A stretch of 64,000 bases of DNA from Nanoarchaeota archaeon SCGC AAA011-G17 (GTDB lineage Archaea > Nanobdellota > Nanobdellia > SCGC-AAA011-G17), in contig AQRL01000038.1 of the NCBI GenBank assembly GCA_000402515.1, positions 37,344 to 101,343 on the forward strand, in the 5' to 3' direction. Under the pieces are notes generated by a model that saw nothing but the letters and a program-made list of their open reading frames with translations, had not been told where the DNA came from and did no database searches. The position numbers and the translations under genes were made by a program. Shown piece by piece: positions 5,464 to 49,009 of the stretch. How positions within the stretch are numbered: the stretch's first letter is position 1; each line of letters starts with the position of its first letter.

Positions 5464-6223
5464 TGTCAGCAAAGAGTATCTTCTTAGCCTATTACAGAGC
5501 GGAAGGAGATTAGATGGAAGAAAATTAAATGAATACAGAGATATTAAAATTGAATTAAATGTCAGCAAGAATGCAGAGGGCAGTGCAAGGGTTAAGTTGG
5601 GGAATAGTGAGGTTATAGTTGGTGTTAAGCTAGAGGTTGGAACACCTTTTCCTGATATGCCTGATGAGGGGAGCATTATTGTTACTGCTGAATTATTGCC
5701 TTTCTCAAATCCTGAGTTTGAATCAGGACCACCAAATTCACAGAGTATTGAATTGGCAAGGGTTGTTGACAGGGGAATCAGGGAGAGCAAGGCGCTTGAT
5801 TTCAAAAAATTGTGCATTGTAGAGGGAGAGAAGGTCTGGCTTGTACTAATTGATATTTATACTATTAATGATGAAGGGAATTTACAGGATGCTGCTGCTC
5901 TTGCTGCAATGGCTGCTTTAATGCATGCAAAGATTCCAAAGTATGATGGAAACAAGGTTGATTATCATGAGCATAGTGGAAATCTTCCATTAACAAGAAA
6001 ACCTCTTGAGTGCACTGTAATGAAGATAGGAGAGCATTTTATAGTTGATCCTGTTAAGGAAGAGGAGGCTTTTGTTGATGCCAGATTAACTGTTGCGGTA
6101 ATAGAGGACGGGAATGTCTGTGCAATGCAGAAGGGCGGAGAGAAAGCCTTAAGTATTGAAGATGCAGAAAAAATGATTGAAATTGCTATTGAAAAGACAA
6201 ACGAGATGAGGAAGAAACTATGA
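5450..6223 (+). CDS. rrp42: Exosome complex component Rrp42 (inactive RNase PH-like)
   Basis: 'LDGRKLNEYRDIKIELNVSKNAEGSARVKLGNSEVIVGVK' has the RNase PH fold. It directly follows rrp41. Confidence 0.85.
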   Translation: MKMNNVSKEYLLSLLQSGRRLDGRKLNEYRDIKIELNVSKNAEGSARVKLGNSEVIVGVKLEVGTPFPDMPDEGSIIVTAELLPFSNPEFESGPPNSQSIELARVVDRGIRESKALDFKKLCIVEGEKVWLVLIDIYTINDEGNLQDAAALAAMAALMHAKIPKYDGNKVDYHEHSGNLPLTRKPLECTVMKIGEHFIVDPVKEEEAFVDARLTVAVIEDGNVCAMQKGGEKALSIEDAEKMIEIAIEKTNEMRKKL

Positions 6224-11559: not shown

Positions 11560-14500
11560 TTAGATTATATGCTCTTTTCCTATCTTTGCCATAACTAAGT
11601 TATGCATCCTTTGTATGAATTCCTGTTTGTCTTCTATTTTATAGATATCTGTATGCGCCTGTATTATTAAGTTGAATGCAAATGGAGAGGGTATTGTTGT
11701 ATTTATTTCTTTTATTTTTATTTTTTCATCTTCAATCTGTTTCAGAACTAATTCTGCATTATTAATGTCCATCAGGTCTTCAAAAACCTCCCTCTTTGTT
11801 TCTTTTATTAGTGAGAAATTTGGAGAGATTCTTTTTAATGCGTTCATCAAAATCATTGAAGAGACCTGCTGCCTTCCAACTCTTTTTTTATAACCCTTAT
11901 ACTCCCTTAAAATCATTAAAGAGCGAGTTGCTACATGCCTAAACCTTCTTGAAAGAACCTGTGTTTTATCTATTGCCAGTTCCATTATTTTCTGCAGTTC
12001 AGATGATTTTATTTTTGAAAGGGCCTGTGTTGCCTGAATATTTGTTTCAGAAGAAAGATAAAAACCATTGTCGTTTATTCCTATTTCAACGTCTTTGTGC
12101 TGAAACCTTGAGATTGCATAGGCTAATGCCCTTGATAATACATCATTTACCCTCCTTCCGTATAATGAATGGAAGATTACGTATTTTTTTTTGTCTCCTG
12201 CATAGCAGTATTCAATCACGATTTTTTTATCATTTGGAATCTCTTTTTTATAGAGGAACTGCTCCCTAAAATATTCATAAATTGCATTTGCTGCATTTTC
12301 ATCTATGTAGAGATAATCGAGAATGAACTTAATAATCTCCTCTTTATTTCTTTTTGCCAGCATTTTTTCTTCAACTAACCTCCTGAATTTTCCTATTTCT
12401 AATGCCAAATCAAAGGATAAAGGAAGCATTTCTGAGAACCAGGAGGGGATTGTTGGAAGTTTGCTGACTGTTGCCTGGACTTGGGCGGTCATTCCACGAC
12501 TGAATAGGAAAATGTATCTATTTCCTCCCAATATGAAAACATCTCCTCTTTTTAGCTTCTCAAGAAATAATTCATCTATATGGCCTACAGTCTGCTCTCC
12601 TATTTTTACTGAGATAAAGGATTCATCTGGAATTGTTCCTATATTGGTCATGTAAATCATTCTTGCTAGTTTTCCCTTTTTTCCAATCATGCCTGTTTCT
12701 TTGTCATACCAGATTTTTGCATAGATATGGCGGTCTTCTAGGCTTGAATATTCCCCTGATAGATATTCTATTATTTCCCTGAAGTCTGTCATTGACAAAT
12801 CTTTATATGGGTAAGCCTGCCTTACTAGATTGTATAACTCTTTATAGCTAATCTGATTTGAGATTGCTATTCCGTAGATCTGCTGGGCAAGAACATCGAG
12901 GCAGTTTTTTGGAATGTGAATCTTGTCTATTTTTTTTTCTATTGCTGATTTTAAAAGTACAGAGCACTCTACTAAATCATCCCTGTCTAATACTATAATC
13001 CTTCCTTTTGATGTTTCATGCAGCTTGTGCCCTGACCTGCCAATTCTCTGAATCGCTCGAGCTATACTTTTAGGACTTCCCAATAGAATTACTAAATCAA
13101 TATAACCAATATCCAAACCTAACTCTAATGATGTACTACAAACAACTACCTTTAATTTTCCTTCCCTTAGTTTTTGCTCTATGTTAAAGCGGTGCTCTTT
13201 TGACAGAGAGCCGTGATGGGCTCCAATATTTTCTGTATAATTCTGGGGGAATTTATCTTTAAGATGATAGACTACTCTTTCTGTTGCTGAACGTGTGTTT
13301 GTGAATATCAGGGTTGTTTTATGTTGCTGTATCAAGGAATCAATTAAGTTATACATCTCGGTATGGAGCTTTTCTGGTTCAATATTAATTATGTCGGGCA
13401 CTGGAGAAAGAACTTTTAGATCCATTTTTTTGATAAACTGAGAATCAACTATTTTACATGGTCGTGTTTTTCCATTTTCCAGTCCTACTAAGAATTGCGC
13501 TATTTCTTCTAATGGCGAAATTGTAGCTGAAAGGCCTATTCTTGTTAGTGGTTCTTTTGTTAGGGCTTGTAATCTTTCTAGAGATAGTGATAAATGAGTG
13601 CCTCGTTTCGAATCTGCTAAGGCATGAATCTCGTCTATTACCAGATATCTTGTACTTTTTAGATGTTCTATGAATTTTGTTGAGGTCAAAACAATTGCCA
13701 ATGATTCCGGAGTACAAAGAAGAATATGGGGAGCTTTGTTGGACATCTTTTGCTTTTCAGATGCTGTTGTATCTCCTGTTCTTACTGCTATTCTTATCCC
13801 AAATTTCTTTTCTGCTAATTTTTCTATTTCTTCCAGTGGTGTTTTTAGATTAACTTCTATATCCCTTGTTAATGCCTTAAGCGGAGAAACGTAAACAGCG
13901 TATGTTTTGTCTTCCAACATATTATTTTCTGAGAGATTTATTAATTCATTTAGGATTGAGAGAAATGCTGTTAAGGTATTATGCAGGTATATTCCCCCAT
14001 ACCCTCCAACGAAATTATGTATATCTGGAACTGTTAAATCAATAACTTTTCCATTATATTCAAACTCCTTAATTTCTTTTACTTTAAGCCAACAAATATT
14101 TTTATTTAACAACTCGTCAATTTCTTTAAATAAACCATTTAAATTTTTATTATTAAACTTTATAATTTTGTTTTTTAAATTTGTTAAAGCAATTTCAGTT
14201 ATATAACCTGTTCTTCTTACTACTTCATAAATAGTTCCAAATTCTTTATTAAATTCTATATCATTTTTACATAGTTTTGACAAGTTTCTAATCTTTTTGT
14301 AATCAAATTTATGTTTTAAAACACATTCTCCGTTAGATTTTTTTAGTATTTGTTTTTCTAATAAAAAATGGTTTGGATGATCTATATCTACTTCTTCTAA
14401 GAATAATTTAATATTTTTTATTTTTCTAATAATCAAGGAATAATATTCTCTTCTAGTTTTATTTATTGTATTTGAAGCATACCTTATTGGCTTGTTTATG

Positions 14501-15858
14501 GAGGAAAATATACCCAATGATAATAGTAAATAATTGATAATTTCAATCTTATTTTTATTAGATTGATGTAAGATAATCTCTCCACCTTCTTTTGAAATTG
14601 TAGATTCCAAAGAAAAAAATACATTTAGAAAATTAGTTTTTATATCTTTCTTTGCATCAAGAAGCCAGTTTGGTAAAGAAACATATCTTCCTCTTCCGAT
14701 TTTTATTTCTAATAAATCTCTTAAAAAATAACAAAATAATGTAAAATCTACAGAATAATCTTTTTCATTTTTTTGTTTGAACTTCACATCAAATAGTTTT
14801 TTGCTATTCTTAAAAAATTCTTTTAACAAATATTTTCTATTCTTTTGTGAAACAGCTAAGTGAGTTCCCCTTTCATAATCCCCAATAAACCCCTCTGCAA
14901 GAACAAATGATAACCACCTTGCTAACTTTATATCTACTTTTTTAGGATATCTAAAAGAGAAAGTATTATTCCCCTTGTTTTTAACAATTATCCTGTTTTT
15001 TTCAAATTTAACTTTTTTACATTCTTTTTTAAATAAATTAAATAATAATTCTTTTTTATAATTTGTTTGCTTGTTGAATAAATTATATACCTGGCTTATT
15101 GATAATCCTATTTTATTCCCTAAGTCAGCAAAGGATGTTTTTTGTAAGGTCTTAATTTCATACAGTTCTTTGATAGTTAAATTATTAAAATTGTTAAAAT
15201 TATTTGTTTTCTTTTTTAATCTTAAATAATCTTCATAAATAATGGATATTCCAGCTTTATCTTTTAAATTTTGTATTGCTAGCTTGTAATCCAGAAAAAT
15301 CTCTCTCTCAGGCAATTTAATTGTTTTTGGTACAGCTATTTTATCTTCTTTTTTGATATCTTTTGCAGGAACCCATCCTTTTCCTTCAACGAGTAATGGA
15401 TGATCTTTGCTGAGTTTTATTTCCCGACCATATTCTGTCCTTATTTTCAATAATGTATCTTTGGTGTCTTCAAAATAAACTAATGCCTTTGTCTTTTTAA
15501 TTTGATTTTCGTCCAATGAAAAACTTTTTAGAGATGATAGACTGTATAACTCTCCTGTTTTATCAATATTTGTTATTTTTTTACCTTTCTTTTTTGCTAT
15601 TTCCATTAATTCTTCTGCCTTTAGCAATTTTGTACGACCATCTAACTCTAATAAAATATTTGTATCTGGAGTTATGCATTTTGTTGCTCCTGTTGGTGCT
15701 GATATTAGAATGTTATTTTCATTATGAATTTCCATTACGCCATATAGCTGTGGGAGTGAAAACTCCTTAAACTTTGTAAAGAACCACTGCTTTACTATTG
15801 GGTTTAGGATTTTCTCTATCTGCTCTTTTGTGTGAGGTTTTTCCAAATAGGTTATCAT
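11560..15858 (-). CDS. lhr: Lhr-type ATP-dependent helicase (DEAH/DExH box) interrupted by an in-frame intein
   Basis: The extein reads 'SAPTGATK|TLTAFLSIL', 'YVSPLKALTRD', 'RTGDT', 'LLCTPESL', 'LVIDEIHAL'. These are Lhr-core motifs. The extein is ~865 aa. Confidence 0.8.
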   Translation of the reverse strand: MITYLEKPHTKEQIEKILNPIVKQWFFTKFKEFSLPQLYGVMEIHNENNILISAPTGATKCITPDTNILLELDGRTKLLKAEELMEIAKKKGKKITNIDKTGELYSLSSLKSFSLDENQIKKTKALVYFEDTKDTLLKIRTEYGREIKLSKDHPLLVEGKGWVPAKDIKKEDKIAVPKTIKLPEREIFLDYKLAIQNLKDKAGISIIYEDYLRLKKKTNNFNNFNNLTIKELYEIKTLQKTSFADLGNKIGLSISQVYNLFNKQTNYKKELLFNLFKKECKKVKFEKNRIIVKNKGNNTFSFRYPKKVDIKLARWLSFVLAEGFIGDYERGTHLAVSQKNRKYLLKEFFKNSKKLFDVKFKQKNEKDYSVDFTLFCYFLRDLLEIKIGRGRYVSLPNWLLDAKKDIKTNFLNVFFSLESTISKEGGEIILHQSNKNKIEIINYLLLSLGIFSSINKPIRYASNTINKTRREYYSLIIRKIKNIKLFLEEVDIDHPNHFLLEKQILKKSNGECVLKHKFDYKKIRNLSKLCKNDIEFNKEFGTIYEVVRRTGYITEIALTNLKNKIIKFNNKNLNGLFKEIDELLNKNICWLKVKEIKEFEYNGKVIDLTVPDIHNFVGGYGGIYLHNTLTAFLSILNELINLSENNMLEDKTYAVYVSPLKALTRDIEVNLKTPLEEIEKLAEKKFGIRIAVRTGDTTASEKQKMSNKAPHILLCTPESLAIVLTSTKFIEHLKSTRYLVIDEIHALADSKRGTHLSLSLERLQALTKEPLTRIGLSATISPLEEIAQFLVGLENGKTRPCKIVDSQFIKKMDLKVLSPVPDIINIEPEKLHTEMYNLIDSLIQQHKTTLIFTNTRSATERVVYHLKDKFPQNYTENIGAHHGSLSKEHRFNIEQKLREGKLKVVVCSTSLELGLDIGYIDLVILLGSPKSIARAIQRIGRSGHKLHETSKGRIIVLDRDDLVECSVLLKSAIEKKIDKIHIPKNCLDVLAQQIYGIAISNQISYKELYNLVRQAYPYKDLSMTDFREIIEYLSGEYSSLEDRHIYAKIWYDKETGMIGKKGKLARMIYMTNIGTIPDESFISVKIGEQTVGHIDELFLEKLKRGDVFILGGNRYIFLFSRGMTAQVQATVSKLPTIPSWFSEMLPLSFDLALEIGKFRRLVEEKMLAKRNKEEIIKFILDYLYIDENAANAIYEYFREQFLYKKEIPNDKKIVIEYCYAGDKKKYVIFHSLYGRRVNDVLSRALAYAISRFQHKDVEIGINDNGFYLSSETNIQATQALSKIKSSELQKIMELAIDKTQVLSRRFRHVATRSLMILREYKGYKKRVGRQQVSSMILMNALKRISPNFSLIKETKREVFEDLMDINNAELVLKQIEDEKIKIKEINTTIPSPFAFNLIIQAHTDIYKIEDKQEFIQRMHNLVMAKIGKEHII
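13978..15678 (-). mobile_element. Intein (567 aa) with LAGLIDADG homing-endonuclease domain, inserted between Lys and Thr of the Lhr Walker-A motif
   Basis: It starts with Cys ('CITPDTNILLELDG') and ends 'VGGYGGIYLHN', followed by Thr+1. DOD motifs are 'WLSFVLAEGFIGD' and 'FLNVFFSLEST'. Confidence 0.8.
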
Positions 15859-22056: not shown

Positions 22057-25000
22057 GTGATGGCAGTAATAGAAAAGATTAAGATGCAGGGATTTAAGTC
22101 CTTTGCCAAGTCTACTGAAGTTCCTTTAGGCAAGGATTTTAGTGTTATACTAGGCCCTAATGGCTCTGGTAAATGCCTAATTGGCAGTTCTTTAGTACAG
22201 TTAAATGATGGCTCCTTGGTTGAAATAGGTAAAATAGTTGAGGATAAATTGAAGACCAACTCTATTAAAAAAATAGATGATGGCTTTATAGCTGAAGGGG
22301 ATGATACTAAGATTATTTCTTTAAATTTAAATAACCTGAAAAATGAGGCTAAAGAGATTAAGGCTTATGTTAAAAGGGAATCTCCTGAATATTTATTAAG
22401 AATTAAGACAAGAAGCGGCAGGGAAATTACCAGTACAGAATATCATCCTTTATTTGTTTTTGAGGAGAATAGGATTAGGGCTGTTAAAGCTGACGAACTA
22501 AAAATAGGGGTTAAAATAGCTGTTCCGAGGCAGATTAGTATTGGAAAAAATAATTATTTTTATGAGTTAATTGATTTAATTGACAAAGGTGATAGAATTT
22601 ATGTTTCTTATAATGAAGAGTTTATTTGTATTTTAAATAAGTTAAAAAAATCTACATGGAAAGACTTGGCTAATGAGATAGGAATTCCTTTGAATGCTAT
22701 TAAGGGACTATTAGATAAACAGGCTATTAATTTTGCTTATTTAATTAAACTACTTAAACACTCTAAATTAAGTAATCAGGAAATAATAAAACTCATTCCT
22801 TATGTTAAATCAAAAGGCATTGAAAGAAAATATAAAGTTCCATGGTGTAATTCCAGAGAATTTTCAAGATTTTTTGGATATTTAATTGCTGAAGGAAGGT
22901 TACCAGAATCAAGTAATCAAATATGGTTTACAAATGGGGATGAGGAGATTGTTAGTGATTATGCTAATCTAGTCGCTCATTTGTTTGAAGTTAAGCCAAG
23001 CATTAATGAATATAAAGAGGGATGCTGGGATGTTTTGTTTTATTCTGTTCCAATAAGACAGATTTTAGATAAATTTGGCATGCATGTTGGTGGAAAAACC
23101 GAAAATAAAGAACTAACTAATTTATTTTTAAAAAACAGTTCTGATATAGAATTGGGAGAATTTTTATCCGGACTTTATTCCGGGGATGGCTATGTGGGAA
23201 AAAGCAGCATTGATATAATAACCAAGAGCAGAAAGTTGGGTTTTAATATTGAGAATATTTTGGTAAGATTGGGCATATTATTTAGCTCAAGATATAAAAT
23301 TAAAATTGCTACCAACAGTGGTTTTAGCGGGATTTATAGAGAAATTTCAGTATATGGCGTTGAGAATTTCTTAAAGTTTAAAAAATATGTCAATATAGTC
23401 CATAATTCAAAGAGAGAAAGGCTTGATAATCTTTTGGGCGTTAAGTCAAATCCAAATTTAGATGTTATAGATGTTAATAATTTAATAAGGAAGGTTGTTA
23501 AAGAGTTTAATATAAAAATAAAATCAAATAAGAAAGAATTTCCAAGATTAGGTGCCTATTGTTATAAACAATGTTTACCGAGCAGGAGCGGTATAAACTA
23601 TTTGATTGATAATTTGTTTTCTAACTCTAATGAACATGAGAATTTATTACTGTTAAAACAAATAGCTAACTCTGATATTTATTGGGATGAAATTATTGAG
23701 ATTGAAAAGATAAAAAGCAATGAGAAATGGGTTTATGACCTATGTATTGAAGATAATCATAATTTTATTGCGAATAATATATTTGTACATAACAGCAACA
23801 TTACAGATGCAATATGTTTTGTTCTCGGAAGATTGAGCGCCAAAAGCCTTAGAGCAGACAAGAGCGCTAATTTAATCTATAATGGGGGGAAAAAGGGGGA
23901 GCCTGCAAAAGAGGCAGAGGTAAGCATTTTGTTTGATAATTCTAATAAGTTATTTCCATTAAATGTCAGCAAGATAAAGATTACAAGAAGCGTCAGAGAA
24001 AACGGGCAGAGCAAGTACAAAATAAATGATGAAATCAGGACAAGGCAGCAGGTCATAGATTTATTGGCTGCTGGAAAGATAAATCCAGATGGGTATAATA
24101 TTGTTCTGCAGGGAGATATTACACATGTTACTGAGATGCCTACAGAGGAGAGGAGAAAGGTTATTGAGGATATTTCCGGCATTGGTGTTTATGAGGAAAA
24201 AAAAGAAAAGGCAATTAATGAATTAACAAAGGTTGATGTGAAATTAAATGAGGCAAGCATTGTTCTGAAGGAGAGAGAAACCTATCTTAGTGAGCTAAAA
24301 AAAGACAGGGATCATGCTGCTAAATACAAGGATCTTGAAGGCAATATCAAGAGGAATAAGGCTACCTTTTTGCATGTTCAGATTAATGACAAACAAAAGA
24401 AGAGGGAAGAGTTTGAAGGCAAGATTAATAAAAATCAGGAAGAGGCTGATAAGATAAGAAAGACGGTTGATGAATTGAGAGAGGAAATTAACAAAAATAA
24501 GGAAGAGATTAGTTCTATCAGCAAGGAAATAGAGGAGAAGGGAGAGAAAGAGCAGGTTAATCTTCACAGAGAGATTGAAACTGTTAAAGAGCAGAAGGCC
24601 AGAGACCAGGCAAGAATGGAGGGTTTGGGCAATGAGCTTAACAGGATTAATGAGAGAAAGAAACAATTAGAGATTGATTTAAGAGAAATAACTGAAAAGA
24701 TAAAACAACTGGAAAATGAGAGAAATAATTTAACAAAAAGAAGAAAGATTATTGTTGAAAAAGAGAGCATCATTGAAAAGAAATTAGGAGGAAAAAGAGG
24801 AGATAACAAGGAAGAGAGGGATTTAGACGAGATTGAAAAAAAGCTGGATGAAAAACAATTTATCCTGGATGAATTAAATAACAAGAAAACAATTTTGTTA
24901 AGGGATAAAGACAGATTAGACACACAGATAAATTCTCTGAATAAATTAAGCGGCGGAGATGAATTAAAAAAATTAAAAGAGTTTAAAGAGAAATTTAAAG

Positions 25001-27072
25001 AGGTTTCCAGTAATCTTAATAGTTCTTTAAAAGATAATGATAATATTGTTTCACAGCTTTCCAAGGCAAGAAGCAAATTAAGAGAGATAAGCGAGGAGCA
25101 GGCCAGATTAAGCATAAGAGAGGTTAGTTTCAAAGAAGGGGCTTATGGCGACCTTGCTTTAAACAAGATAAAAGAGCTTAGAATGAATGGGGTGTATGGG
25201 ACAATAGCTGAGCTTGGTGAGGTTGACAAGAAGTTTTCTATGGCTTTGGAGGTTGCTGCCGGCTCCAGAATAAAAAGTATTGTTGTTGAGGATGATTCTA
25301 TTGCTGCCAAGTGCATCAAATATTTAAAAGACAATAAACTAGGTGTTGTTACTTTCCTGCCTTTGAACAAAATAAAGGCTCCTGAAGCAATTGATAAAAA
25401 AGTGGGTTATGGCATTGCCCTGAATCTAATAAAATTTGACAACAAATTCAGCAGGGCATTTGGCTATGTTTTTGGAAATACAATTGTTGTTGAGAATATA
25501 AACCAGGCAAGAAATATCGGCATTGGAAAGGACAGGATGGTTACTTTAGATGGGGATTTAGTTGAGGGCTCTGGAGCAATGATTGGTGGTTTCAGAAGGC
25601 AAAAAACAGGATTTAAACAGATGGATTTTACAAAGAACCTTGAAGAGCTTAATAATGAGATTGGAAGATTAAGAGAGATTGTAGATAGTTTAGAGAAGAA
25701 AAAATTAGAGAATGAGGATAATGTTTATCTGTTAAGAAACGATAAGTCTGAATTAGAGGGAGAGATTATAAAACTGGAGAAGAGCTTTGGCGGGGAAGAA
25801 GAGAAAAATGAAAGAGAATCAGCTGTTAAAAATCTAAATAGTGTTGAAAGGGAATTAAATAATGCTGAAGCAAATTACAATAAATTGCTTAAGGATGTTG
25901 AAGAATTAAAAAATAAAAAAAGCTCTTTGAGAGAGAGTGTAAGCAAGATAAGAGGAAACAAAGAAACTGATAAAATAGATTCTGAGTTCAGGCAGATTAG
26001 AGAAGAAAGAATTGTTTTGGAGAATGAATTAAAAAATATTGAGATACAGATAAGAGACGGATTAATTCCAGAAAGAGAAAATATAATCAGGATTATTAAA
26101 GAGCATGAAAAAGAGATTTTAGAATTCCAGAAAGAGAGCGAGGATATCAGTGATAGACTTCTTAAAAATCTTAATCTTTTAAAAGATAAGGAGAGGAATG
26201 AAAAGGAATTTTATTCTAATTTCAAAAATTTATTTAACAAGAGAAACAAATTAAGCGATGAAATACAAAAGAGGGAATTAAAGAGTGTAAGTGAGTATAG
26301 CAGAGTTAGGGCAATTGAGGACAGAACTAACAGCCTGAATATTGATAGGGCAAAGGTATGTGCTGAATTAGAAGGTCTTAATGCTGAATATGAGCAGTTT
26401 AAGGAAATTCAATTAAGAAAAGGAATTGAAATGGATAAATTAAAAGAGGAAATCAGAGATTTTGAAAAGATGATGAATAATCTTGGGAATGTTAATCTAA
26501 GAGCCTTGGAGATTTATGATGAGATTGAAAAGGAGTATAATTCTTTACAGGACAAGGCTGCTACACTAAAATTAGAGAAAGAGGATGTACTAAAGATGAT
26601 TAGTGAGATAGAAAGCAAGAAAGGAGATATGTTTATGAAGAGCTATTCTGAGATAAGCAGGAATTTTGAGAGAATCTTTTCCGAATTGACTGACAAGGGA
26701 ACTGCACATCTTATTTTGGATGATAAGGACAATCCATTTAACGGCGGATTGAAGATTATGGTAAGGATTGCTAAAGGGAAATATCTGGATATCAAGAGCT
26801 TATCCGGGGGAGAAAAGACTCTGACTGCCTTGGCTTTCATATTTGCTATACAGGAATATGACCCTGGGCATTTCTATGTCTTTGATGAGGTTGATGCGGC
26901 TCTGGACAAGACTAATTCCTCTAAATTAGCTAAATTGTTAAGAAAGTACAGCGATAAGGCGCAGTATATTGTTATAAGCCATAATGACAATTTGATTTCT
27001 GAGGCTAATCAGCTATACGGCGTTAGTATGACTGAGAATGGAATGAGCAAGGTTATCAGCTTAAAGGTTTAA
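22057..27072 (+). CDS. smc: Chromosome segregation protein SMC interrupted by an in-frame intein
   Basis: The extein reads 'FKSFAKSTEVPLGKDFSVILGPNGSGK|SNITDAICFVLG' (SMC N-terminal Walker A). It has long coiled coils. C-terminal 'LSGGEKTLTALAFIFAIQ' (signature motif) and 'FYVFDEVDAALD' (Walker B) are present. Confidence 0.85.
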   Translation: MMAVIEKIKMQGFKSFAKSTEVPLGKDFSVILGPNGSGKCLIGSSLVQLNDGSLVEIGKIVEDKLKTNSIKKIDDGFIAEGDDTKIISLNLNNLKNEAKEIKAYVKRESPEYLLRIKTRSGREITSTEYHPLFVFEENRIRAVKADELKIGVKIAVPRQISIGKNNYFYELIDLIDKGDRIYVSYNEEFICILNKLKKSTWKDLANEIGIPLNAIKGLLDKQAINFAYLIKLLKHSKLSNQEIIKLIPYVKSKGIERKYKVPWCNSREFSRFFGYLIAEGRLPESSNQIWFTNGDEEIVSDYANLVAHLFEVKPSINEYKEGCWDVLFYSVPIRQILDKFGMHVGGKTENKELTNLFLKNSSDIELGEFLSGLYSGDGYVGKSSIDIITKSRKLGFNIENILVRLGILFSSRYKIKIATNSGFSGIYREISVYGVENFLKFKKYVNIVHNSKRERLDNLLGVKSNPNLDVIDVNNLIRKVVKEFNIKIKSNKKEFPRLGAYCYKQCLPSRSGINYLIDNLFSNSNEHENLLLLKQIANSDIYWDEIIEIEKIKSNEKWVYDLCIEDNHNFIANNIFVHNSNITDAICFVLGRLSAKSLRADKSANLIYNGGKKGEPAKEAEVSILFDNSNKLFPLNVSKIKITRSVRENGQSKYKINDEIRTRQQVIDLLAAGKINPDGYNIVLQGDITHVTEMPTEERRKVIEDISGIGVYEEKKEKAINELTKVDVKLNEASIVLKERETYLSELKKDRDHAAKYKDLEGNIKRNKATFLHVQINDKQKKREEFEGKINKNQEEADKIRKTVDELREEINKNKEEISSISKEIEEKGEKEQVNLHREIETVKEQKARDQARMEGLGNELNRINERKKQLEIDLREITEKIKQLENERNNLTKRRKIIVEKESIIEKKLGGKRGDNKEERDLDEIEKKLDEKQFILDELNNKKTILLRDKDRLDTQINSLNKLSGGDELKKLKEFKEKFKEVSSNLNSSLKDNDNIVSQLSKARSKLREISEEQARLSIREVSFKEGAYGDLALNKIKELRMNGVYGTIAELGEVDKKFSMALEVAAGSRIKSIVVEDDSIAAKCIKYLKDNKLGVVTFLPLNKIKAPEAIDKKVGYGIALNLIKFDNKFSRAFGYVFGNTIVVENINQARNIGIGKDRMVTLDGDLVEGSGAMIGGFRRQKTGFKQMDFTKNLEELNNEIGRLREIVDSLEKKKLENEDNVYLLRNDKSELEGEIIKLEKSFGGEEEKNERESAVKNLNSVERELNNAEANYNKLLKDVEELKNKKSSLRESVSKIRGNKETDKIDSEFRQIREERIVLENELKNIEIQIRDGLIPERENIIRIIKEHEKEILEFQKESEDISDRLLKNLNLLKDKERNEKEFYSNFKNLFNKRNKLSDEIQKRELKSVSEYSRVRAIEDRTNSLNIDRAKVCAELEGLNAEYEQFKEIQLRKGIEMDKLKEEIRDFEKMMNNLGNVNLRALEIYDEIEKEYNSLQDKAATLKLEKEDVLKMISEIESKKGDMFMKSYSEISRNFERIFSELTDKGTAHLILDDKDNPFNGGLKIMVRIAKGKYLDIKSLSGGEKTLTALAFIFAIQEYDPGHFYVFDEVDAALDKTNSSKLAKLLRKYSDKAQYIVISHNDNLISEANQLYGVSMTENGMSKVISLKV
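22174..23793 (+). mobile_element. Intein (540 aa) with LAGLIDADG homing-endonuclease domain, inserted between Lys and Ser of the SMC Walker-A motif
   Basis: It starts 'CLIGSSLVQLNDG' and ends 'NFIANNIFVHN', followed by Ser+1. DOD motifs are 'FFGYLIAEGRL' and 'FLSGLYSGDGYV'. Confidence 0.85.
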
Positions 27073-29327: not shown

Positions 29328-30587
29328 TTAGTAATAAGTCTGTCCTGCAGATGGCTCTTCTATTGATTCCTCGCCTTCATCTTCTTTTAACTTTTTGAAA
29401 GCAATGATTAATCCTAGAACAACCAAGATTATTGCTAATACTGCAAATCCTATCTGCAATACACTCTTCAAGCTGCCCATACTGGAAGCCTGAGCTTGAA
29501 CATCTGCTTCTAGATTCAACTCTTTAACAGTCTTGCCGTTTGATTTTATCTTAACAGTGAATGCGTGTTTTCCTGCCTCTGCGTTTGCATTAGCAGTTAA
29601 TTTAACATACATTTCACCTGTCTCGTCAGGCATAATTGTTACAATTGCTGGATCTACTCTTGCAGCTGCGAAAGCACCTACACCGGTTACTTCTGCTGAA
29701 TAAACTGCTTTTTCAGCTTCAAAGTTAGCAAACATCAACTTGTATACAACTTCACTTCCTGGAGCTACTGCTTTAGATGCTGCATCTACACTTATCATTG
29801 AATTTGATAATTCTGCGGATACAATACCTTTTACGTGAAGTGTCTTTGTTTCTTTCAGTGTTGAATGACCGTTGTTATAGGTAACTTCAACTTCAGCCTT
29901 GTAATCTCCTGTCTTGGCATCAGCAGGTATTCTTGCGAATAACTCTACCTGAGCTGAGGATTCATCATCGTTATTAGTATCTTCTGCATTTTGAGTTATT
30001 AACTCAGCTAAATAATCGGATGTTGAAACTCCAAGGTCTGGAATTGTCAAGCTTACTTTGATGTCTTCTTCTTTCTTGTAACCTATGTTCTCAAGCCTTA
30101 CTGAAACAAATAAAGCTGAATCAGCATCTATTGAGCTTGAAGGCCTGAAGATTACGTCTTGGATTGACAATGAATGCCTTGATTCTTTGACTCTTACATC
30201 AAAGTCTTTTTCTTCAGAATCTGTTTTGTCTGATACCTTAACAGTTAGTGTGTAGGTTTCAGAAGCGTCTAAGTCTGATGGAATGTCTAAGGTAAGTGTT
30301 TTCTTGTATGTAACACCTGATTCAACTTCAAATACATCTGATACATCTGAAATTGAGCCGTATTCATAACCATCTATCTCTGCTCTTACTTTAACGTTGT
30401 CTTTGTTTCCAGTAGCTTTAATCCATACTTCTACTGGTAATTGTTCCCCTCTTACAACATCCACTACACTTCCTGTAGCTGAGACGTCGTCTATTTTTAC
30501 ATCTGCTATTCCATAATTACTAGAACTAGCTGATACTGTTGTTAGCACCAGTAATAGTGCAAATAACATTGCTAATATTTTCTTCAT
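29328..30587 (-). CDS. Surface protein: signal peptide, beta-rich repeat domains, C-terminal TM anchor with acidic tail
   Basis: 'MKKILAMLFALLLVLTTVSASS' signal peptide. C-terminal 'IGFAVLAIILVVLGLIIAFKKLKEDEGEE'. Confidence 0.5.
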   Translation of the reverse strand: MKKILAMLFALLLVLTTVSASSSNYGIADVKIDDVSATGSVVDVVRGEQLPVEVWIKATGNKDNVKVRAEIDGYEYGSISDVSDVFEVESGVTYKKTLTLDIPSDLDASETYTLTVKVSDKTDSEEKDFDVRVKESRHSLSIQDVIFRPSSSIDADSALFVSVRLENIGYKKEEDIKVSLTIPDLGVSTSDYLAELITQNAEDTNNDDESSAQVELFARIPADAKTGDYKAEVEVTYNNGHSTLKETKTLHVKGIVSAELSNSMISVDAASKAVAPGSEVVYKLMFANFEAEKAVYSAEVTGVGAFAAARVDPAIVTIMPDETGEMYVKLTANANAEAGKHAFTVKIKSNGKTVKELNLEADVQAQASSMGSLKSVLQIGFAVLAIILVVLGLIIAFKKLKEDEGEESIEEPSAGQTYY

Positions 30588-30646: not shown

Positions 30647-33073
30647 TTATAAACCTTTCTGTTGGTTCTTTAGGTCAATAAAAAAGTATTTTGTCTCGGT
30701 ATCCTTGTTATTACTTACAGTTACAGCAATTACTTCCTGTTTCCTATCTGTATTCACTGGCAGTTTAAACATGAAGGTCTGTGTCTTTACTTCTTTTGGA
30801 TTTAGGTCAAAGCTTGATGAATATTGTATCTGGTTAAGCTCTGGCAGGGATATTGTTACTCTAACATCCTTTTCCTTTAATCCTGCAAAATTTGCTGCAA
30901 ATACTGTTACTGGGAAATACTCTCCAGGAACTACATTTTTCATGCTGTTAACTATTACTCTTTCGATTCCAATATCATGCTTTGTAGCTCTTAGTGACTT
31001 TGCTTCTTCTGTTACTGTAATCACTGCTGTTTTTTTAGATTCTAAAACACCATCTGTAACTTTGAAAATTAGATTATAGTTACCTAGTGAGCCTGGCACC
31101 CAGGTGAATAACTGATTGTTAAATGCTGCTCCCTCTGGCTTGTTTTCTGCACTGAAGGTTAGTTCATTACTGCCATCATACTGTGCTGAAATTGTGAACT
31201 CTACTTTCTGCCCTAATTTTATTTCCTGTGATGGAATATCATTCAGGCTTAAGTGGAATTCTACTGGCTCTGTGTATTTTGGAAGAACCTTGATTAGTAT
31301 TTCCTGCGTTGCTTCTGCCATGCCATCAGATGCTATTATTATTGAGATGTATTCTCCTGCATCCCCTACTCTTGTCTGCCATTCACCATTCTGGTTTAAT
31401 GGAGAGGTGTAGGAATAGGTTAATTTGTCAAAGTCCAAATCTGTAAATGAATTTCTTGGAACTATCTTTACCAAGTCTCCCTCTGTTACTATAATCGGAC
31501 CTATTGGATTAACTATATGCGGCAATCTGTTAACATCCTTTACTGAGATTATTACTTCCTGCTGGGCATTCAAACTTCCTGCAGATGCCTTGAATGTTAG
31601 TTTAAACTCACATTTTCCGTCATTTCTGCACTGCTTCCCATTTGTGAAATAGTTTGTTATGAATATCTTTATTGTGTCAATAAATGTCCTTTCATGGCTT
31701 ACTGTGTTGTAATCAGGAGTCCAAGCGAATTTATAGCCCAGTAATGGGGCTGGATAATTTAGTACTCCTGGGCCATAGACTGGCTCAAAGGCTGCTCCAC
31801 TTGGCAGGTTTTCTGCAGAATAGTCTATCTTTTGATTTCCATTATAATAAGATGGAGTTACAAAGAAGGTTAATTCTGAGCCTTCATTTACACCCTGATT
31901 AGGTATGAATTTCAAGTCTAGTACTTGTTCTGTTGGAGTTGTTTTTTCGTGAACGGTTAATGGAATTGTCAATACTTGTGATGGATAGTTGCTTATTCCA
32001 TTACATTTTGGATCCTCTGGCATTCCTTCTACTCTTATTGTGTAATCCCCTGCTTTATTTGGTGTCCATGTAAATGAAAACTCTTTTGTATTCTTTAGAT
32101 AGTAATAGGTGTAAGTATAAGCTACTTTCCCGCTTGAATCTTTTACTGTTAGCTTAACTTTATCTTTTACAGGCTCTGTATTCTGGTAGTTATCAATGTA
32201 ATAGGATGATTTATCCCCTGTGATTGTTATTAATTCTCCTACTTCTGCATCAATTGGATTTGATGTTCCTGGTCTATTTAGAATGGTGTAGCAGGCATTT
32301 TGCGGAACATTTTCATGAACCTTGAATTCTGCACTAGCTGTATTTGTTTTTGAAGATGAGCATTTTGAATCAACTACATCTGTTGTTATAAACGCTACAT
32401 AATCATCCTCTAGTGTTGGTGTCCATGTAAATTCAACTGATTGTGAAGAATCCATGAAGATATTTAGTGTCTTTGATTCTTTATATTCATAAGTTGAAAT
32501 ATTGAGATTAGATTTCTTGTAAATCCATAGTGTTACTTTTGTTTCAGCTGAATAGAAATCCCTGTACTCTGCTGGTATGAAAGCAGGTGTATTGCTATTT
32601 GAATGTAATGCTGAATAGGTATCTGCATCTAGTGAAGCTGGAACTTTGATTATTAATGGGATGTTCGGTCTTACATCATTTAGAACTTCAATATGGTCAA
32701 TAGGTGCTGAGCACTGGGCTTTCTTCTCTAGAGTAACTAGTTCAGTTGATTCACCATTTCCATAAACACTCTTGAATGCTTCTTTTCCAAGATATCCCTG
32801 CTTAAAGGCATAAACAGCATATCCGTATTGTGTTGGCAGATTTGTTGGGTACCATACTTTTATATCATAATTTGGATCATTGGCATTTGTATTCCCATTT
32901 GCATGAGGCGTTACAGAACTACAAGATGCATCATTACAAGTATAGGCTAGAAAATTAACATTGTCTAATTTATTCCCATCTTTATTCTGAAATTCATAAG
33001 TCATAATTACCTGAGCACTAGCTAGACTTATTAAAAATACAAATAAGATAGGGATTAAAAGTAATTTTTTCAT
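30647..33073 (-). CDS. Large secreted adhesin-like protein (808 aa) with multiple Ig/cadherin-like repeat modules
   Basis: Signal peptide 'MKKLLLIPILFVFLISLASAQ'. Repeated '...FTWTP...' beta-sandwich-like modules. No TM. Confidence 0.5.
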   Translation of the reverse strand: MKKLLLIPILFVFLISLASAQVIMTYEFQNKDGNKLDNVNFLAYTCNDASCSSVTPHANGNTNANDPNYDIKVWYPTNLPTQYGYAVYAFKQGYLGKEAFKSVYGNGESTELVTLEKKAQCSAPIDHIEVLNDVRPNIPLIIKVPASLDADTYSALHSNSNTPAFIPAEYRDFYSAETKVTLWIYKKSNLNISTYEYKESKTLNIFMDSSQSVEFTWTPTLEDDYVAFITTDVVDSKCSSSKTNTASAEFKVHENVPQNACYTILNRPGTSNPIDAEVGELITITGDKSSYYIDNYQNTEPVKDKVKLTVKDSSGKVAYTYTYYYLKNTKEFSFTWTPNKAGDYTIRVEGMPEDPKCNGISNYPSQVLTIPLTVHEKTTPTEQVLDLKFIPNQGVNEGSELTFFVTPSYYNGNQKIDYSAENLPSGAAFEPVYGPGVLNYPAPLLGYKFAWTPDYNTVSHERTFIDTIKIFITNYFTNGKQCRNDGKCEFKLTFKASAGSLNAQQEVIISVKDVNRLPHIVNPIGPIIVTEGDLVKIVPRNSFTDLDFDKLTYSYTSPLNQNGEWQTRVGDAGEYISIIIASDGMAEATQEILIKVLPKYTEPVEFHLSLNDIPSQEIKLGQKVEFTISAQYDGSNELTFSAENKPEGAAFNNQLFTWVPGSLGNYNLIFKVTDGVLESKKTAVITVTEEAKSLRATKHDIGIERVIVNSMKNVVPGEYFPVTVFAANFAGLKEKDVRVTISLPELNQIQYSSSFDLNPKEVKTQTFMFKLPVNTDRKQEVIAVTVSNNKDTETKYFFIDLKNQQKGL

Positions 33074-34949: not shown

Positions 34950-35939
34950 TTATTTACTCTCCCTTTCTTGCTTTTGATAGTTTATAGCATGTGATATGAT
35001 ATCTGCAACAAGATTTTGTGTTGTTGATTTAAACTGCCTTATCCCATCTTCATTTAGAGACATTATGTTTCCAGGACCTGTTGCTTTTTCTATTTCTGGT
35101 CTTTCTTGAATGAAATAAACATATTCCCCAAAGAAATTTTCTTCTGGTAAGAGTGGTTTTAGTCTTTCAAACTCTCTTTTTGCTTTATCTATTTTTAGTT
35201 CATCAAGCGGTCTTGCTAGAATTCTTTTCAGTGTGCTGCTTTCTTCTTCTATTCTATTTATTATTAGTAATTTCTGTTTTTTTGTTTCTTCATAGTAATC
35301 TCTTTCCTTTGTTAGTTCTATTATTTCTTTCACTATTTTTGGGATAGTGCTCATTGATGCATCCCCTCTTTGACTTACTATTACCCTGTTATCTGTTTCT
35401 ATTAATGGCTCTAAACCCATTTGTTTGGAGGCATAGTTCGGAAAGTCATAAATAACCACCCCATAACTGCTATTCTTTAAACCTTCTATAATTTTCATTT
35501 GTGCATTTAATGTTTTTTTATCGTTATCAATGGTTATCCCATTTATCCAATCATCATTTCTTATTAAAAAATAAGATAAGTTAGGACAGCTAATACTTTG
35601 AGAATATAATGATGGGTCGATACCTTTTTTTGTGACAAAGGACCTGATTCTATTTTTTTCTTTTATATCCTGGAAAACTATTGAAACAAGATTTGGATTA
35701 TTGATCCAATTAAATTCTACTGCTGCTGTTTTTAATCCTGATTTTGCAGATAAGTAGGCAAGCCATGCTGCTAGTGTTGTTTTTCCTACCCCCCCTTTTG
35801 CAGATGAAATACCCACTTGAATTGGTCTGTATAATCCTTGTTCTTTATACCAAATAGTTCCATCAGTGTTTGGATCAGAATTTCTTTGCTGTGATAACAT
35901 ATGTTGTAATACTTTTGTTCTTACATTATAGTCTGGCAT
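34950..35939 (-). CDS. ParA/MinD-family P-loop ATPase (deviant Walker A)
   Basis: 'GISSAKGGVGKTTLAAWLAYLSAKSG' is a deviant Walker A of the SIMIBI ParA/MinD class, with a ~45-aa N-terminal extension. Confidence 0.65.
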   Translation of the reverse strand: MPDYNVRTKVLQHMLSQQRNSDPNTDGTIWYKEQGLYRPIQVGISSAKGGVGKTTLAAWLAYLSAKSGLKTAAVEFNWINNPNLVSIVFQDIKEKNRIRSFVTKKGIDPSLYSQSISCPNLSYFLIRNDDWINGITIDNDKKTLNAQMKIIEGLKNSSYGVVIYDFPNYASKQMGLEPLIETDNRVIVSQRGDASMSTIPKIVKEIIELTKERDYYEETKKQKLLIINRIEEESSTLKRILARPLDELKIDKAKREFERLKPLLPEENFFGEYVYFIQERPEIEKATGPGNIMSLNEDGIRQFKSTTQNLVADIISHAINYQKQERESK

Positions 35940-40959: not shown

Positions 40960-42810
40960 ATGAACAAGAAGGATATTTTATTTCCCTATGATGAATTGAG
41001 GAAGGGGCAGGAGGATTTTATTGTTGATGTAAATAATTCTATTTTATTCGGTGGAAAATTAATTGGAAGTGTTCCTACTGGTGTTGGAAAGACTGTTTCT
41101 GTTTTAAGCCCTCTGGTTTCATTTGTTCTTGACAGGAATTACTGCGGTTTTTTTCTTACTCCAAAACATACACAGCATAAACTTGCTATTAATACTTTAA
41201 GACTGATAAAAGAGAGATATAAAATTAAATTTAATGCTGTTGATTTTATCGGCAAGAGGTTCATGTGCGGGCAGGAGGGGGTGGCTGTTCTGAGCAATGG
41301 TGAGTTTCATGAATACTGCAGGGATATTAGAGAGAAGGGAACATGCGACTTTTATAACAACTGTACAAACAAGAAGAGCAGTGCTAAAAAAGAATTATTA
41401 ATAGAGAGATTAAAGGAATTGGGTCCTTTGCATGTTGAGGATGTGTGCAAGCTTTGCATTGATGAAGGATTCTGCCCGTTTGAGATAAGCTGTATGATTG
41501 CCAAAGAGTCCAAAGTTATTATCGGGGATTATTACCATATTTTAAGCACTGGAGTAAGGGATGCTTTGTTTCTTAAGATTAATAAAAGTCTTGATAAGAG
41601 TATTTTGATATTTGATGAGGGGCATAATCTGATCAGCAGAGTAAGGGATTTAATGACTGTCAATCTAAGCAGTTTTATCCTGGACAATGCAATCAAAGAG
41701 GCTAATAATTTTCATTATGATGAGTATGCTGATATTTTAAATGAATTAAAAAACAAATTAGAGAATCTGAATAAAGATAAATTAAGTGTTGAGATTAATG
41801 AGGGTTTGGTCAAGAAACAGGATTTTATTTTTAATGAGCAGTATATCCAGGACTTTTCTATAATAGCTGATGAGGTCAGGGAAGTAAAGAAGAGGAGCTT
41901 TATCGGACTAGTTGGAGGTTTTTTAGAGGCATGGCTCGGGGGTGAAACAGGCTATGCAAGAATATTACAGCGTGGATTTTTAAAATCAGGAAAAGTAAAT
42001 ATCAGCCTGAGCTATAGATGTTTAGACCCTTCTTTAATTACAAAGAAGATAATTGACGAGGCCTATTCTGTAATTGTGATGAGCGGAACTTTACTGCCAT
42101 TAGAGATGTACAGGGATTTATTAGGATTTTCAGATGTTAAGATGAAGGAATATGATAATCCGTTTCCTGTTGAGAATAAATTAAGTTTAATAGTCCCTAA
42201 TATCAGCACTAAATTTACAAAGAGGAATGAGGAGATGTACAAGAGGATTGCAAATGAGGTTTCAGAGATAGTAAATAATGTTCCAGGCAATGTTGCTGTT
42301 TTTTTCCCAAGCTATAATATTCTGAAAGATGTTGACAGGTTTACTGTTATTAAAAAAACAGGATTTTATGAAAGGCAGGGGTTGACCAAAGAGGAGAGGG
42401 ATGAGGTAATTGAGAAATTCAAGAGCCATAAAGATCATGGGGGAGTATTATTTGGGGTTTCTGGCGGAAGCTTTTCAGAGGGGATTGATTTAATCGGGGA
42501 TTATCTGAAGGGAGTAGTTGTTGTTGGACTGCCGTTATCAAGACCTGATGTTGAGACAAAAGAATTGATAAAATATTATGATGATAAATTTTCTAAGGGA
42601 TGGGATTATGGATATATATTACCGGGAATGACGAAGGCAATACAGGCTTCTGGAAGATGCATTAGGTCAGAGACTGACAAGGGAGTAATTATTTTCCTAG
42701 ATGAGAGGTATACCTGGGATATGTATCACAGATGCTTTCCAAAAGACTGGGATATTAAAATAAGTAAGCTACCTGTTGAGAGAATAAATAGATTTTTTAC
42801 TTCAAAGTAG
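40960..42810 (+). CDS. xpd: XPD/Rad3-family 5'-3' DNA helicase with 4Fe-4S domain
   Basis: Walker A 'SVPTGVGKT'. Four Cys in 'FMCGQ...EYCRDIREKGTCDFYNNC'. DEAH box 'IFDEGHNL'. ~616 aa. Confidence 0.8.
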   Translation: MNKKDILFPYDELRKGQEDFIVDVNNSILFGGKLIGSVPTGVGKTVSVLSPLVSFVLDRNYCGFFLTPKHTQHKLAINTLRLIKERYKIKFNAVDFIGKRFMCGQEGVAVLSNGEFHEYCRDIREKGTCDFYNNCTNKKSSAKKELLIERLKELGPLHVEDVCKLCIDEGFCPFEISCMIAKESKVIIGDYYHILSTGVRDALFLKINKSLDKSILIFDEGHNLISRVRDLMTVNLSSFILDNAIKEANNFHYDEYADILNELKNKLENLNKDKLSVEINEGLVKKQDFIFNEQYIQDFSIIADEVREVKKRSFIGLVGGFLEAWLGGETGYARILQRGFLKSGKVNISLSYRCLDPSLITKKIIDEAYSVIVMSGTLLPLEMYRDLLGFSDVKMKEYDNPFPVENKLSLIVPNISTKFTKRNEEMYKRIANEVSEIVNNVPGNVAVFFPSYNILKDVDRFTVIKKTGFYERQGLTKEERDEVIEKFKSHKDHGGVLFGVSGGSFSEGIDLIGDYLKGVVVVGLPLSRPDVETKELIKYYDDKFSKGWDYGYILPGMTKAIQASGRCIRSETDKGVIIFLDERYTWDMYHRCFPKDWDIKISKLPVERINRFFTSK

Positions 42811-47909: not shown

Positions 47910-48185
47910 CTATTTTTTATAAACGCATTTTCCCAAGAAGGAATAGTTAACTGCTTCTTCTATAGCTATCGGCCAGCTCATAATGCTGAAGCTTTCTCTT
48001 GTTTTTCTGAAAAGCCTTAATTCCAAATCAGCTAGCTCTTCCTCAAATTCAATATTAAATTTATAATTCGGTGAAATAAAATAATAGGTTAGATAGTTTT
48101 TTTCTTCTGGATTATGGCCCTTGTAAACTGCACTAATTATTGGATATTTATCAGCAAACTTAATTAGTTCCTTTAGAATATTCAC
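47910..48185 (-). CDS. Hypothetical protein, translationally coupled to the upstream AAA ATPase
   Basis: 4-nt overlap with 48182..48994. Confidence 0.3.
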   Translation of the reverse strand: MNILKELIKFADKYPIISAVYKGHNPEEKNYLTYYFISPNYKFNIEFEEELADLELRLFRKTRESFSIMSWPIAIEEAVNYSFLGKCVYKK

Positions 48186-48994: not shown

Positions 48995-49009
48995 ATTTCT
49001 AATCCTCCT

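Follow-up and report, generated by a model that had tools for sequence, protein, structure and literature searches.

A LAGLIDADG intein in the Walker A motif of a nanoarchaeal SMC protein and its distant relation to the intein of a neighbouring Lhr-type helicase

Two unrelated P-loop ATPase genes on one stretch of archaeal DNA each carry an intein directly behind the P-loop lysine, which raises the question of what these insertions are and whether one of them gave rise to the other. The stretch (called the window in the following) comprises 64,000 nucleotides of contig AQRL01000038.1 (positions 37,344 to 101,343, forward strand) from assembly GCA_000402515.1 of Nanoarchaeota archaeon SCGC AAA011-G17. 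One gene encodes an SMC protein with the junctions GPNGSGK^C...N^S, the other an Lhr-type helicase with the junctions APTGATK^C...N^T (^ marks the insertion point). A first-pass annotation of the window had described both insertions, and this description was confirmed. It had also taken the two inteins for a specifically related pair that spread between ATPase genes through a shared GK[ST] target, and this part did not hold. The reading we prefer, with a probability of about 0.85, is that SMC carries a genuine class-1 bifunctional intein, inserted at the 'classic' position of its P-loop, and that the Lhr intein belongs independently to the same broad clan.

The SMC gene is a single stop-free open reading frame (ORF), for which the ATG at position 22060 is the likely true start. 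Its translation runs from VMAVIEKIKMQGFKSFAKSTEVPLGKDFSVILGPNGSGK into the intein (CLIGSS...NNIFVHN) and from there into SNITDAICFVLG. The insertion is in frame, contains zero stops and measures exactly 540 amino acids (aa). It lies between the Walker A lysine and the next serine, which would act as the +1 nucleophile. Excision of the 540 aa restores the motif GPNGSGKSN within the spliced sequence GPNGSGKSNITDAICFVLG, and the precursor of 1671 aa is reduced to an SMC product of about 1131 aa. In Pfam, the ORF matches SMC_N with 150 bits, split around the insertion, and SMC_hinge with 113.9 bits, together with Intein_splicing (110.2 bits, cutoff 35.8) and LAGLIDADG_3 (49.7 bits, cutoff 22.5). 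ORF boundaries, Pfam matches and the fold model described below thus bear out the earlier claim of a 540-aa LAGLIDADG intein inside the SMC Walker A motif. The Lhr intein (APTGATK^CITPDT...GGIYLHN^TLTAFL) is located at motif I, the P-loop, of the RecA1 domain, and same-site inteins are present in other Lhr proteins (P0031-P0040). As had been proposed, its position is structurally equivalent to that in SMC, since both insertions separate the Walker A lysine from the following serine or threonine. The G+C content is lower in both inteins than in their exteins (0.288 vs 0.348 for SMC, 0.245 vs 0.346 for Lhr). Such AT-richness is in line with a foreign origin or with constraints on composition that are relaxed or different.

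For the anatomy of the SMC intein, an alignment of nine SMC-site inteins (35-59% identity to the window copy) served to build an AlphaFold2 model, which was compared with the PDB by Foldseek. Invariant in all nine are C1, T88, H91, E240-G241, G337-D338, WVYDL, HNF and H539-N540, and in the linker region N426, N428, D430, C467, S470 and R471. Block B of the window copy reads T88-E-Y-H91. In the set of 129 inteins used for tree building (see below), the block B threonine is found in 111/129 and the histidine in 123/129, the penultimate histidine in 128/129 and the terminal asparagine in 129/129. The acidic column of LAGLIDADG motif 1 holds Glu or Asp in 116 of the 129 inteins, that of motif 2 Asp or Glu in 120.

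The model reached a mean predicted local distance difference test score (pLDDT) of 91.5 and a predicted template modelling score (pTM) of 0.90. Its top Foldseek matches are full-length archaeal bifunctional inteins, namely TliVMA (7qss; E 1e-24, target TM-score 0.80), PI-PkoII (2cw7; TM-score 0.69/0.69) and PI-PfuI (1dq3). For the splicing lobe alone, PhoCDC21-1 (6rpq) was matched with 39% identity at 1.5 Å, and the Hint part of the model superposes on 6rpq, 4o1s and 5o9i at 1.5-2.1 Å over about 125 aligned columns. A search of the PDB by sequence only gave 6rpq (E 2e-30) as best match, followed by 6rpp (E 7e-22), with the alignment of the 6rpq C-lobe at a posterior of 95%; the endonuclease part matched the V-ATPase intein domains 7qsu/7qss. 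The endonuclease has the pseudo-dimeric alpha-beta-beta-alpha-beta-beta-alpha fold and is nested in the Hint domain. In this part the model matches 7qss, 2cw7 and 1dq3 as well as the free-standing enzymes I-DmoI and I-Tsp061I. Alignment, fold model and PDB matches together give the domain order listed in the table. The helical insert ahead of the endonuclease (aa 126-229) is present in the SMC, Lhr, aIF2-gamma, HerA2, MCM-GL, MoxR and TPQ-site groups; in the MCM-P, HerA1, RFC and TerL groups it is mostly missing. It may provide an extra contact to DNA.

Table. Interrupted genes, inteins and intein domains in the window (positions refer to the window; aa numbers are those of the SMC intein)
Feature	Position	Strand	Basis
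SMC gene with intein, 1671 aa	22057..27072	+	single stop-free ORF; Pfam SMC_N and SMC_hinge
N-extein, SMC N-terminus up to Walker A GPNGSGK	22057..22173	+	translation
SMC intein, 540 aa, Cys1 to His539-Asn540, Ser at +1	22174..23793	+	translation, Pfam, fold model
Hint N-terminal lobe, aa 1-125, with Cys1 and block B T88-x-x-H91	22174..22548	+	invariant residues; match to 6rpq
Helical insert, aa 126-229, with helix-turn-helix-like pair DLANEIGIPLNAIKGLLDK	22549..22860	+	helices 131-207 in the model
LAGLIDADG homing-endonuclease domain, aa 230-430	22861..23463	+	Pfam LAGLIDADG_3; matches to 7qsu/7qss, I-DmoI, I-Tsp061I
LAGLIDADG motif 1, FFGYLIAEGRL, catalytic-position Glu240	22870..22902	+	E240 and G241 invariant in SMC alleles
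LAGLIDADG motif 2, LSGLYSGDGYV, catalytic-position Asp338	23164..23196	+	G337 and D338 invariant in SMC alleles
Helical linker, aa 431-494, conserved NPNLD and CxPSR	23464..23655	+	invariant residues; helices 435-498 in the model
Hint C-terminal lobe, aa 495-540, blocks F and G (WDEI, WVYDL, HNF, terminal VHN)	23656..23793	+	invariant columns; 6rpq alignment
C-extein, starting SNITDAICFVLG; remaining SMC head, coiled coil, hinge, C-terminal head	23794..27072	+	translation, Pfam
Lhr-type helicase gene, 1432 aa	11560..15858	-	Pfam DEAD, Helicase_C, WH_Lhr, DEAD_assoc
Lhr intein, 567 aa, at Walker A K^T	13978..15678	-	Pfam Intein_splicing and LAGLIDADG_3

From its conserved residues, the SMC intein is predicted to splice and to possess endonuclease activity. 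Translation would yield the 1671-aa precursor, in which the ATP-binding loop is broken. Cys1 would then begin an N-S acyl shift, Ser+1 would attack the resulting thioester, and Asn540 would cyclise with the aid of His539 and release the intein. Ligation of the exteins would result in the normal GPNGSGKSN Walker A motif and an active SMC protein. The freed intein, or the precursor, may act as a site-specific endonuclease which cuts intein-less SMC alleles, and repair from the intein-bearing copy would spread the element (homing). Since the target is ultra-conserved, loss of such an element would be hard and its transfer across lineages easy. SMC is essential for chromosome organisation. With its Walker A motif broken by the intein, SMC function would therefore depend on protein splicing.

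How the SMC site is occupied in other organisms was analyzed in two ways. The spliced SMC head (joined exteins) was searched against a database of 5.8 billion proteins. The best 120 matches are 57-70% identical and come mostly from Nanoarchaeota and Woesearchaeota assemblies; none of these 120 heads contains an intein domain, and GPNGxGKSN is uninterrupted in 120/120. In addition, a profile of SMC-site inteins was searched against the GTDB species genomes, in which a scan with the single SMC intein sequence had found no match. The profile found 516 relatives, of which the best 80 loci were kept, and junctions could be read in 61/80. Among these best 80 of 516, the same SMC site is occupied in at least 33 species genomes (L001-L032, L040), with the junctions GPNG[SC]GK^C...HN^SN or a near variant in all 33. 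The archaeal carriers belong to Nanoarchaeia, Pacearchaeota, Micrarchaeota, Iainarchaeum and Aenigmatarchaeota, together with bins labelled Methanosarcinales; the bacterial carriers belong to Omnitrophota, Planctomycetota, Chloroflexota/Limnocylindria, Acidobacteriota (Pyrinomonadaceae), Rokubacteria and Uhrbacteria. The closest of these inteins is 56% identical to the window copy. At loci L008-L032 (match at about 4001-5690 in each), which comprise bacteria and DPANN archaea, the identity is 28-39%. Empty sites in the nearest relatives, occupied sites across two domains, conserved acidic residues of the endonuclease and the lower G+C content of the intein fit a mobile, sporadically distributed element which spreads now or has recently spread by homing. 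Since the same SMC site is occupied in bacteria and DPANN archaea, transfer between the domains has probably taken place through the conserved GPNGxGK^SN. This distribution fits horizontal spread by way of an ultra-conserved target.

Several of the SMC-site relatives deviate from the common pattern. Three loci (L002, L003, L022) are from bins labelled 'uncultured Methanosarcinales archaeon'. Their SMC inteins share 51-53% identity with the window copy and have extein flanks (FNCVLGPNGSGK / SNILDALCFVLG) that resemble DPANN ones; these labels may be wrong, or the transfer may be recent. In L024, threonine replaces serine at +1 (VHN^TNIVDA). The SMC-site variant of P0136 (residues 39-569) begins GPNGSGK^SCRSDT, that is, with a Ser1 start or a shift by one residue. 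P0121 (residues 43-601) ends ...MALKN^TDGSH, has lost the penultimate histidine and its flank is not SMC-like. This intein may be decayed.

Variation was also observed around the Lhr intein. The Walker A motif of the window Lhr (15679-15699, minus strand) reads APTGATK^T, with threonine where the canonical GxxxxGK[ST] has glycine before the lysine. Related intein-bearing Lhr proteins have GSTK (P0031), GGTK (P0035) or GATK (P0044, P0053 and P0135), and others retain GSGK. The exchange of this glycine might mean that the -1/-2 extein residues have adapted together with the intein, or that the ATPase is weakened. The Lhr relative P0035 (1883 aa) contains two inteins, one in the P-loop (residues 63-618) and one at residues 928-1395. 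The second is inserted at GLQR^C...HN^CGRAGH, which corresponds to helicase motif VI in RecA2, a type of site reported earlier for aLhr2 of Thermococcales (PMC8301817).

The second part of the question, whether the SMC and Lhr inteins are close relatives of which one was derived from the other in this lineage through cutting of a shared GK[ST] target, was addressed by their direct comparison. The circumstances invite such a descent: the two inteins occupy the same position in two P-loop nucleoside triphosphatases (NTPases) about 6 kb apart, both have the optional helical insert before the endonuclease, and they are homologous over their full length. BLASTP aligned them with 26% identity over about 530 aa (67 bits, pairwise E 4e-16), the endonuclease domain included, and their similarity therefore extends beyond the splicing motifs. 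The alignment proposed in the first-pass annotation thus revealed true relatedness, at a level no higher than the background within the clan. This similarity was missed by phmmer at E<=10. HMMER composition filters appear to suppress matches of inteins rich in Lys, Asn and Ile, and intein surveys of DPANN archaea by HMMER only may under-connect them. For comparison of the pair, BLAST and alignment distances were used in place of phmmer.

To place both inteins among their relatives, the Lhr intein was searched exhaustively with HMMER against 1.84 billion representative proteins, which gave 435 matches; a word-indexed search returned 4 Lhr alleles only. Together with the SMC-intein search, 134 inteins with both junctions defined were obtained, and representative hosts were confirmed by Pfam. 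With the SMC intein as BLAST query, same-site inteins of other species score up to 615 bits, followed by inteins of the MCM P-loop (180 bits), HerA (169), a VirB11-type protein (157), a DUF362 protein, which is not an ATPase (156), and the second MCM site (132). The Lhr group comes 11th of 17 host/site groups with 74.7 bits. With the Lhr intein as query, same-site inteins score up to 755 bits, aIF2-gamma 143 and HerA 118 and 112 bits, and the SMC group (102 bits) equals MoxR, where the site is not a P-loop. The first SMC intein appears at about rank 44 of the Lhr-intein search. Conversely, no Lhr-site junction is present among the 61 read junctions of the best 80 of 516 relatives of the SMC-intein profile.

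Neighbour-joining trees of 129 inteins (455 columns, 200 bootstraps) recovered an SMC clade in 83% and an Lhr clade in 69% of the bootstraps, and a clade of SMC and Lhr inteins exclusively in 0/200. The sister of Lhr is aIF2-gamma, with or without MoxR, in about 80% of the bootstraps. By bootstrapped mean distance, the nearest group to SMC is MCM_P or HerA1_P, in the splicing lobes, in the endonuclease and over all columns, and the nearest group to Lhr over all columns is aIF2-gamma in 248/300. Each of SMC and MCM_P is the other's nearest group, and the same holds for Lhr and aIF2-gamma (GTPase_P). For each other, SMC and Lhr take only ranks 12 to 13 of 14 groups over all columns and in the splicing lobes, and ranks 12 and 8 in the endonuclease columns. 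The same picture is found in the single domains, where the mean identity of SMC and Lhr inteins is 22% in the Hint N-lobe, 15% in the endonuclease and 30% in the Hint C-lobe, compared to 34%, 25% and 53% between SMC and MCM_P. In the insert, which offers no comparison with MCM_P, SMC and Lhr inteins share 13% (13-17%). The insert was considered as a special link between the two and rejected, as it occurs in at least seven host/site groups, at least five of them besides SMC and Lhr, and the SMC-Lhr identity is low there. The further traits that had been cited as shared are all present, namely the start with CL or CI, the end with FVHN or YLHN and the motif 1 with IAEG or LAEG. They turned out to be generic in the clan: in the alignment of 129 inteins, CV, CL or CI is found at the start of 103 and HN at the end of 128, and the motif-1 columns hold A in 65, E in 75 and G in 121.

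At the DNA level, blastn of the SMC against the Lhr intein gave nothing above AT-rich noise. A recent duplication of one intein into the other gene was rejected on this result. The intein-less targets were reconstructed as GTTATACTAGGCCCTAATGGCTCTGGTAAA^AGCAACATTACAGATGCAATATGTTTTGTT for SMC and CTAATATCAGCACCAACAGGAGCAACAAAA^ACCTTAACAGCATTTCTCTCAATCCTAAAT for Lhr. They are identical at 24/60 bases and at 11/24 central bases, where about 28% identity is estimated to occur by chance in DNA as AT-rich as this. Such a match is too little for one LAGLIDADG site of about 20 bp, and a homing site shared between GSGK^S and GATK^T, as the first-pass annotation had suggested, was therefore not found. 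The derivation of one intein from the other is thus largely refuted and very improbable. From their sequences, the similarity of the two inteins is typical of the clan-wide background, which makes them distant cousins, neither sisters nor the result of a recent copy.

Against the reading of the SMC insertion as a bifunctional intein and of the Lhr intein as an independent clan member, the following points have to be weighed. The endonuclease activity is judged solely from the conserved acidic residues and the patchy distribution, and many inteins have inactive endonucleases. MCM_P is nearest to SMC by mean distance in 200/300, though its sister in less than 20% of the bootstraps. The deep branching is weakly resolved because it comes from neighbour-joining on 455 columns at about 25-30% identity, with a set that was gathered by similarity. 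Finally, the source genome is outside the GTDB representatives, and the count of its inteins refers to the window.

If the SMC and Lhr inteins did not arise from each other, the question is how both came to the same point of two unrelated ATPases. One explanation is an ancient hopping of an endonuclease-bearing clan among the Walker A K^S/T sites of unrelated NTPases, favoured by the partial likeness of GxxGxGK[ST] targets. The SMC intein would then trace back to P-loop inteins of the MCM or HerA type and the Lhr intein to those of the aIF2-gamma type, an origin which is compatible with our preferred reading of two independent clan members. The nearest neighbour of each of the two inteins is indeed another P-loop group, the Hint lobe of the SMC intein is 39% identical to that of the MCM P-loop intein PhoCDC21-1, and the distances between groups are slightly smaller where these share the site type (group-level permutation, p 0.025). 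A precedent was described in Anaeramoeba (PMC10710043). Of the bounded top matches of the Lhr-intein search, 75/93 are located at a P-loop K^S/T, in at least 11 host families; this excess is suggestive only, because the set was gathered by similarity and lacks an unbiased background. Several observations are less favourable to hopping. A LAGLIDADG enzyme reads about 20 bp, far beyond GK[ST]. Non-P-loop inteins are interleaved with the others, and the MoxR-site inteins (EQEG^S) join the Lhr/aIF2-gamma group. The inteins at an MCM site 27 aa past the P-loop (GxGL^C) and in the DUF362 protein score 132-156 bits against the SMC intein. The latter is found in P0162 (882 aa), which is not a P-loop NTPase, at residues 154-676 (IIHLPTIK^C...HN^THGH). 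With 156 bits it scores like the best P-loop relatives and is therefore a counter-example to a strictly P-loop-bound clan. The +1 residue was also tried as a factor structuring the clan, with serine in SMC, MCM and HerA and threonine in Lhr, aIF2-gamma and RFC, and was dismissed (group-level permutation, p 0.82). Hopping among P-loops is in our view possible, but tentatively so. The earlier idea that inteins hop between P-loop genes thus remains plausible in its broader form, with MCM or HerA as partner of SMC and aIF2-gamma as partner of Lhr, although this origin is again a tentative one; between SMC and Lhr such a step very probably did not take place here.

The alternative is independent colonisation followed by selective retention, in which insertions into P-loops are hard to delete imprecisely and perhaps useful as conditional splicing switches that control ATPase activity, so that SMC and Lhr would be convergent in their site. 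Novikova et al. argue for selective retention at the P-loops of non-orthologous ATPases (PMC4760082). The large distance between the SMC and Lhr inteins within the clan and the interleaved relatives at non-P-loop sites agree with this. On the other hand, conserved endonuclease residues together with empty sites in close relatives suit an active mobile parasite better than a retained regulator, and conditional splicing finds no support in these data. We regard retention as rather unlikely. A wider scenario would be that one large clan of endonuclease inteins radiated over the K^S/T sites of a dozen unrelated NTPase families, with SMC, MCM, HerA, Lhr, aIF2-gamma, RFC/DnaX, RadA, Cdc48-type AAA, VirB11-type, TerL and UvrB proteins as hosts and the SMC-site lineage as an undescribed allele family that has crossed between DPANN archaea and at least six bacterial phyla. 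This scenario is doubtful at present. If true, ectopic homing from P-loop to P-loop would be a general route of intein spread in prokaryotes, a route that was proposed before for one eukaryote. The gathered set, in which about 100 inteins at the P-loops of at least 11 host families are interleaved with a few non-P-loop ones, offers a start for the long-standing question of hopping or retention. For annotation, the locus teaches that kinship of two inteins should not be taken for granted when they occupy the 'same' P-loop position in one genome.

The window has a G+C content of about 32%. Its closest matches among database proteins carry the labels Nanoarchaeota, Woesearchaeota or Pacearchaeota, and its source is therefore a DPANN archaeon. 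A six-frame phmmer scan revealed no third intein in the 64 kb, although such a scan could miss distant ones, because the SMC and Lhr inteins were not detected against each other. Other P-loop genes of the window have an uninterrupted GKT, namely XPD (40960-42810), an AAA_14 ATPase (48185-49009) and a ParA/MinD-like protein (34950-35939). ARAGORN found no tRNA genes in the window. On the minus strand, a protein of 1025 aa (55710-58787) contains MopE-type metal-binding repeats, a dockerin and PKD domains, and two proteins of 808 aa (30647-33073) and 419 aa (29328-30587) contain He_PIG/PKD or Ig-like domains. All three are probably surface-exposed. Large proteins of this type are typical of the cell-surface repertoires of DPANN archaea.

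Inteins in P-loops have been described repeatedly. Their enrichment across non-orthologous ATPases was reported together with the argument for selective retention (PMC4760082), and SMC is absent from the main-text host tables of that paper. A full-text literature search found no paper describing an SMC intein. SMC thus appears to be undescribed as an intein host in the searchable literature, yet common as such in metagenome assemblies, and it extends the already long series of P-loop NTPases with inteins at K^S/T.

In Anaeramoeba, the homologous inteins of 'cluster 1' reside in the P-loops of non-homologous proteins and were read as the result of intragenomic transfer from P-loop to P-loop (Gallot-Lavallee et al. 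2023, PMC10710043). This is the mechanism that had been proposed for the SMC and Lhr inteins. Within one Anaeramoeba genome, such inteins branch together, whereas those of SMC and Lhr do not (0/200). Inteins of Lhr proteins were described earlier in aLhr2 of Thermococcales and Methanocaldococcus, where 10/11 are located in RecA2 and 1/11 in RecA1 (PMC8301817). They combine Intein_splicing and LAGLIDADG in the same way as the window Lhr intein, which is located in RecA1 motif I.

An insertion at K^T has been termed the 'classic' P-loop intein insertion (PMC5050341). The inteins of this kind, like mycobacteriophage TerL1-a, the P-loop site of DnaB, RadA, RFC and aIF2, share with the SMC intein the same point between the Walker A lysine and serine or threonine. 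Among the closest systems are the CDC21-1 P-loop inteins of MCM from Pyrococcus (6rpq, 6rpp), together with their relatives in archaeal MCM that bear an endonuclease. The CDC21-1 intein sits 'at the presumable P-loop' (PMC6801210). Like the SMC intein, these inteins follow the Walker A lysine and have serine at +1 (GDPGxxK^SQLL); MCM P-loop inteins gave the best PDB match by sequence, and MCM_P is the reciprocal nearest group of SMC. The hosts differ, as MCM is an AAA+ protein and SMC has an ABC-type head. The crystallised Pyrococcus inteins are mini-inteins without an endonuclease, in contrast to the SMC intein, and the MCM_P inteins lack its helical insert (aa 126-229) at an overall identity of about 29%. 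In the complete architecture, the SMC intein resembles TliVMA/PhoVMA (7qss, 7qst), PI-PkoII (2cw7) and PI-PfuI (1dq3), in which a Hint domain is likewise split by a double-motif LAGLIDADG endonuclease with accessory DNA-binding modules. These inteins were matched by Foldseek with E values of 1e-24 to 4e-19 and target TM-scores of 0.69-0.80 at only 15-18% identity. Their hosts are different ones, V-ATPase subunit A, DNA polymerase and ribonucleotide reductase, and in contrast to them a helical insert of its own precedes the endonuclease in the SMC intein. In comparison with these systems, both the SMC element, a class-1 bifunctional intein, and its site are standard, and what may be new is its host.

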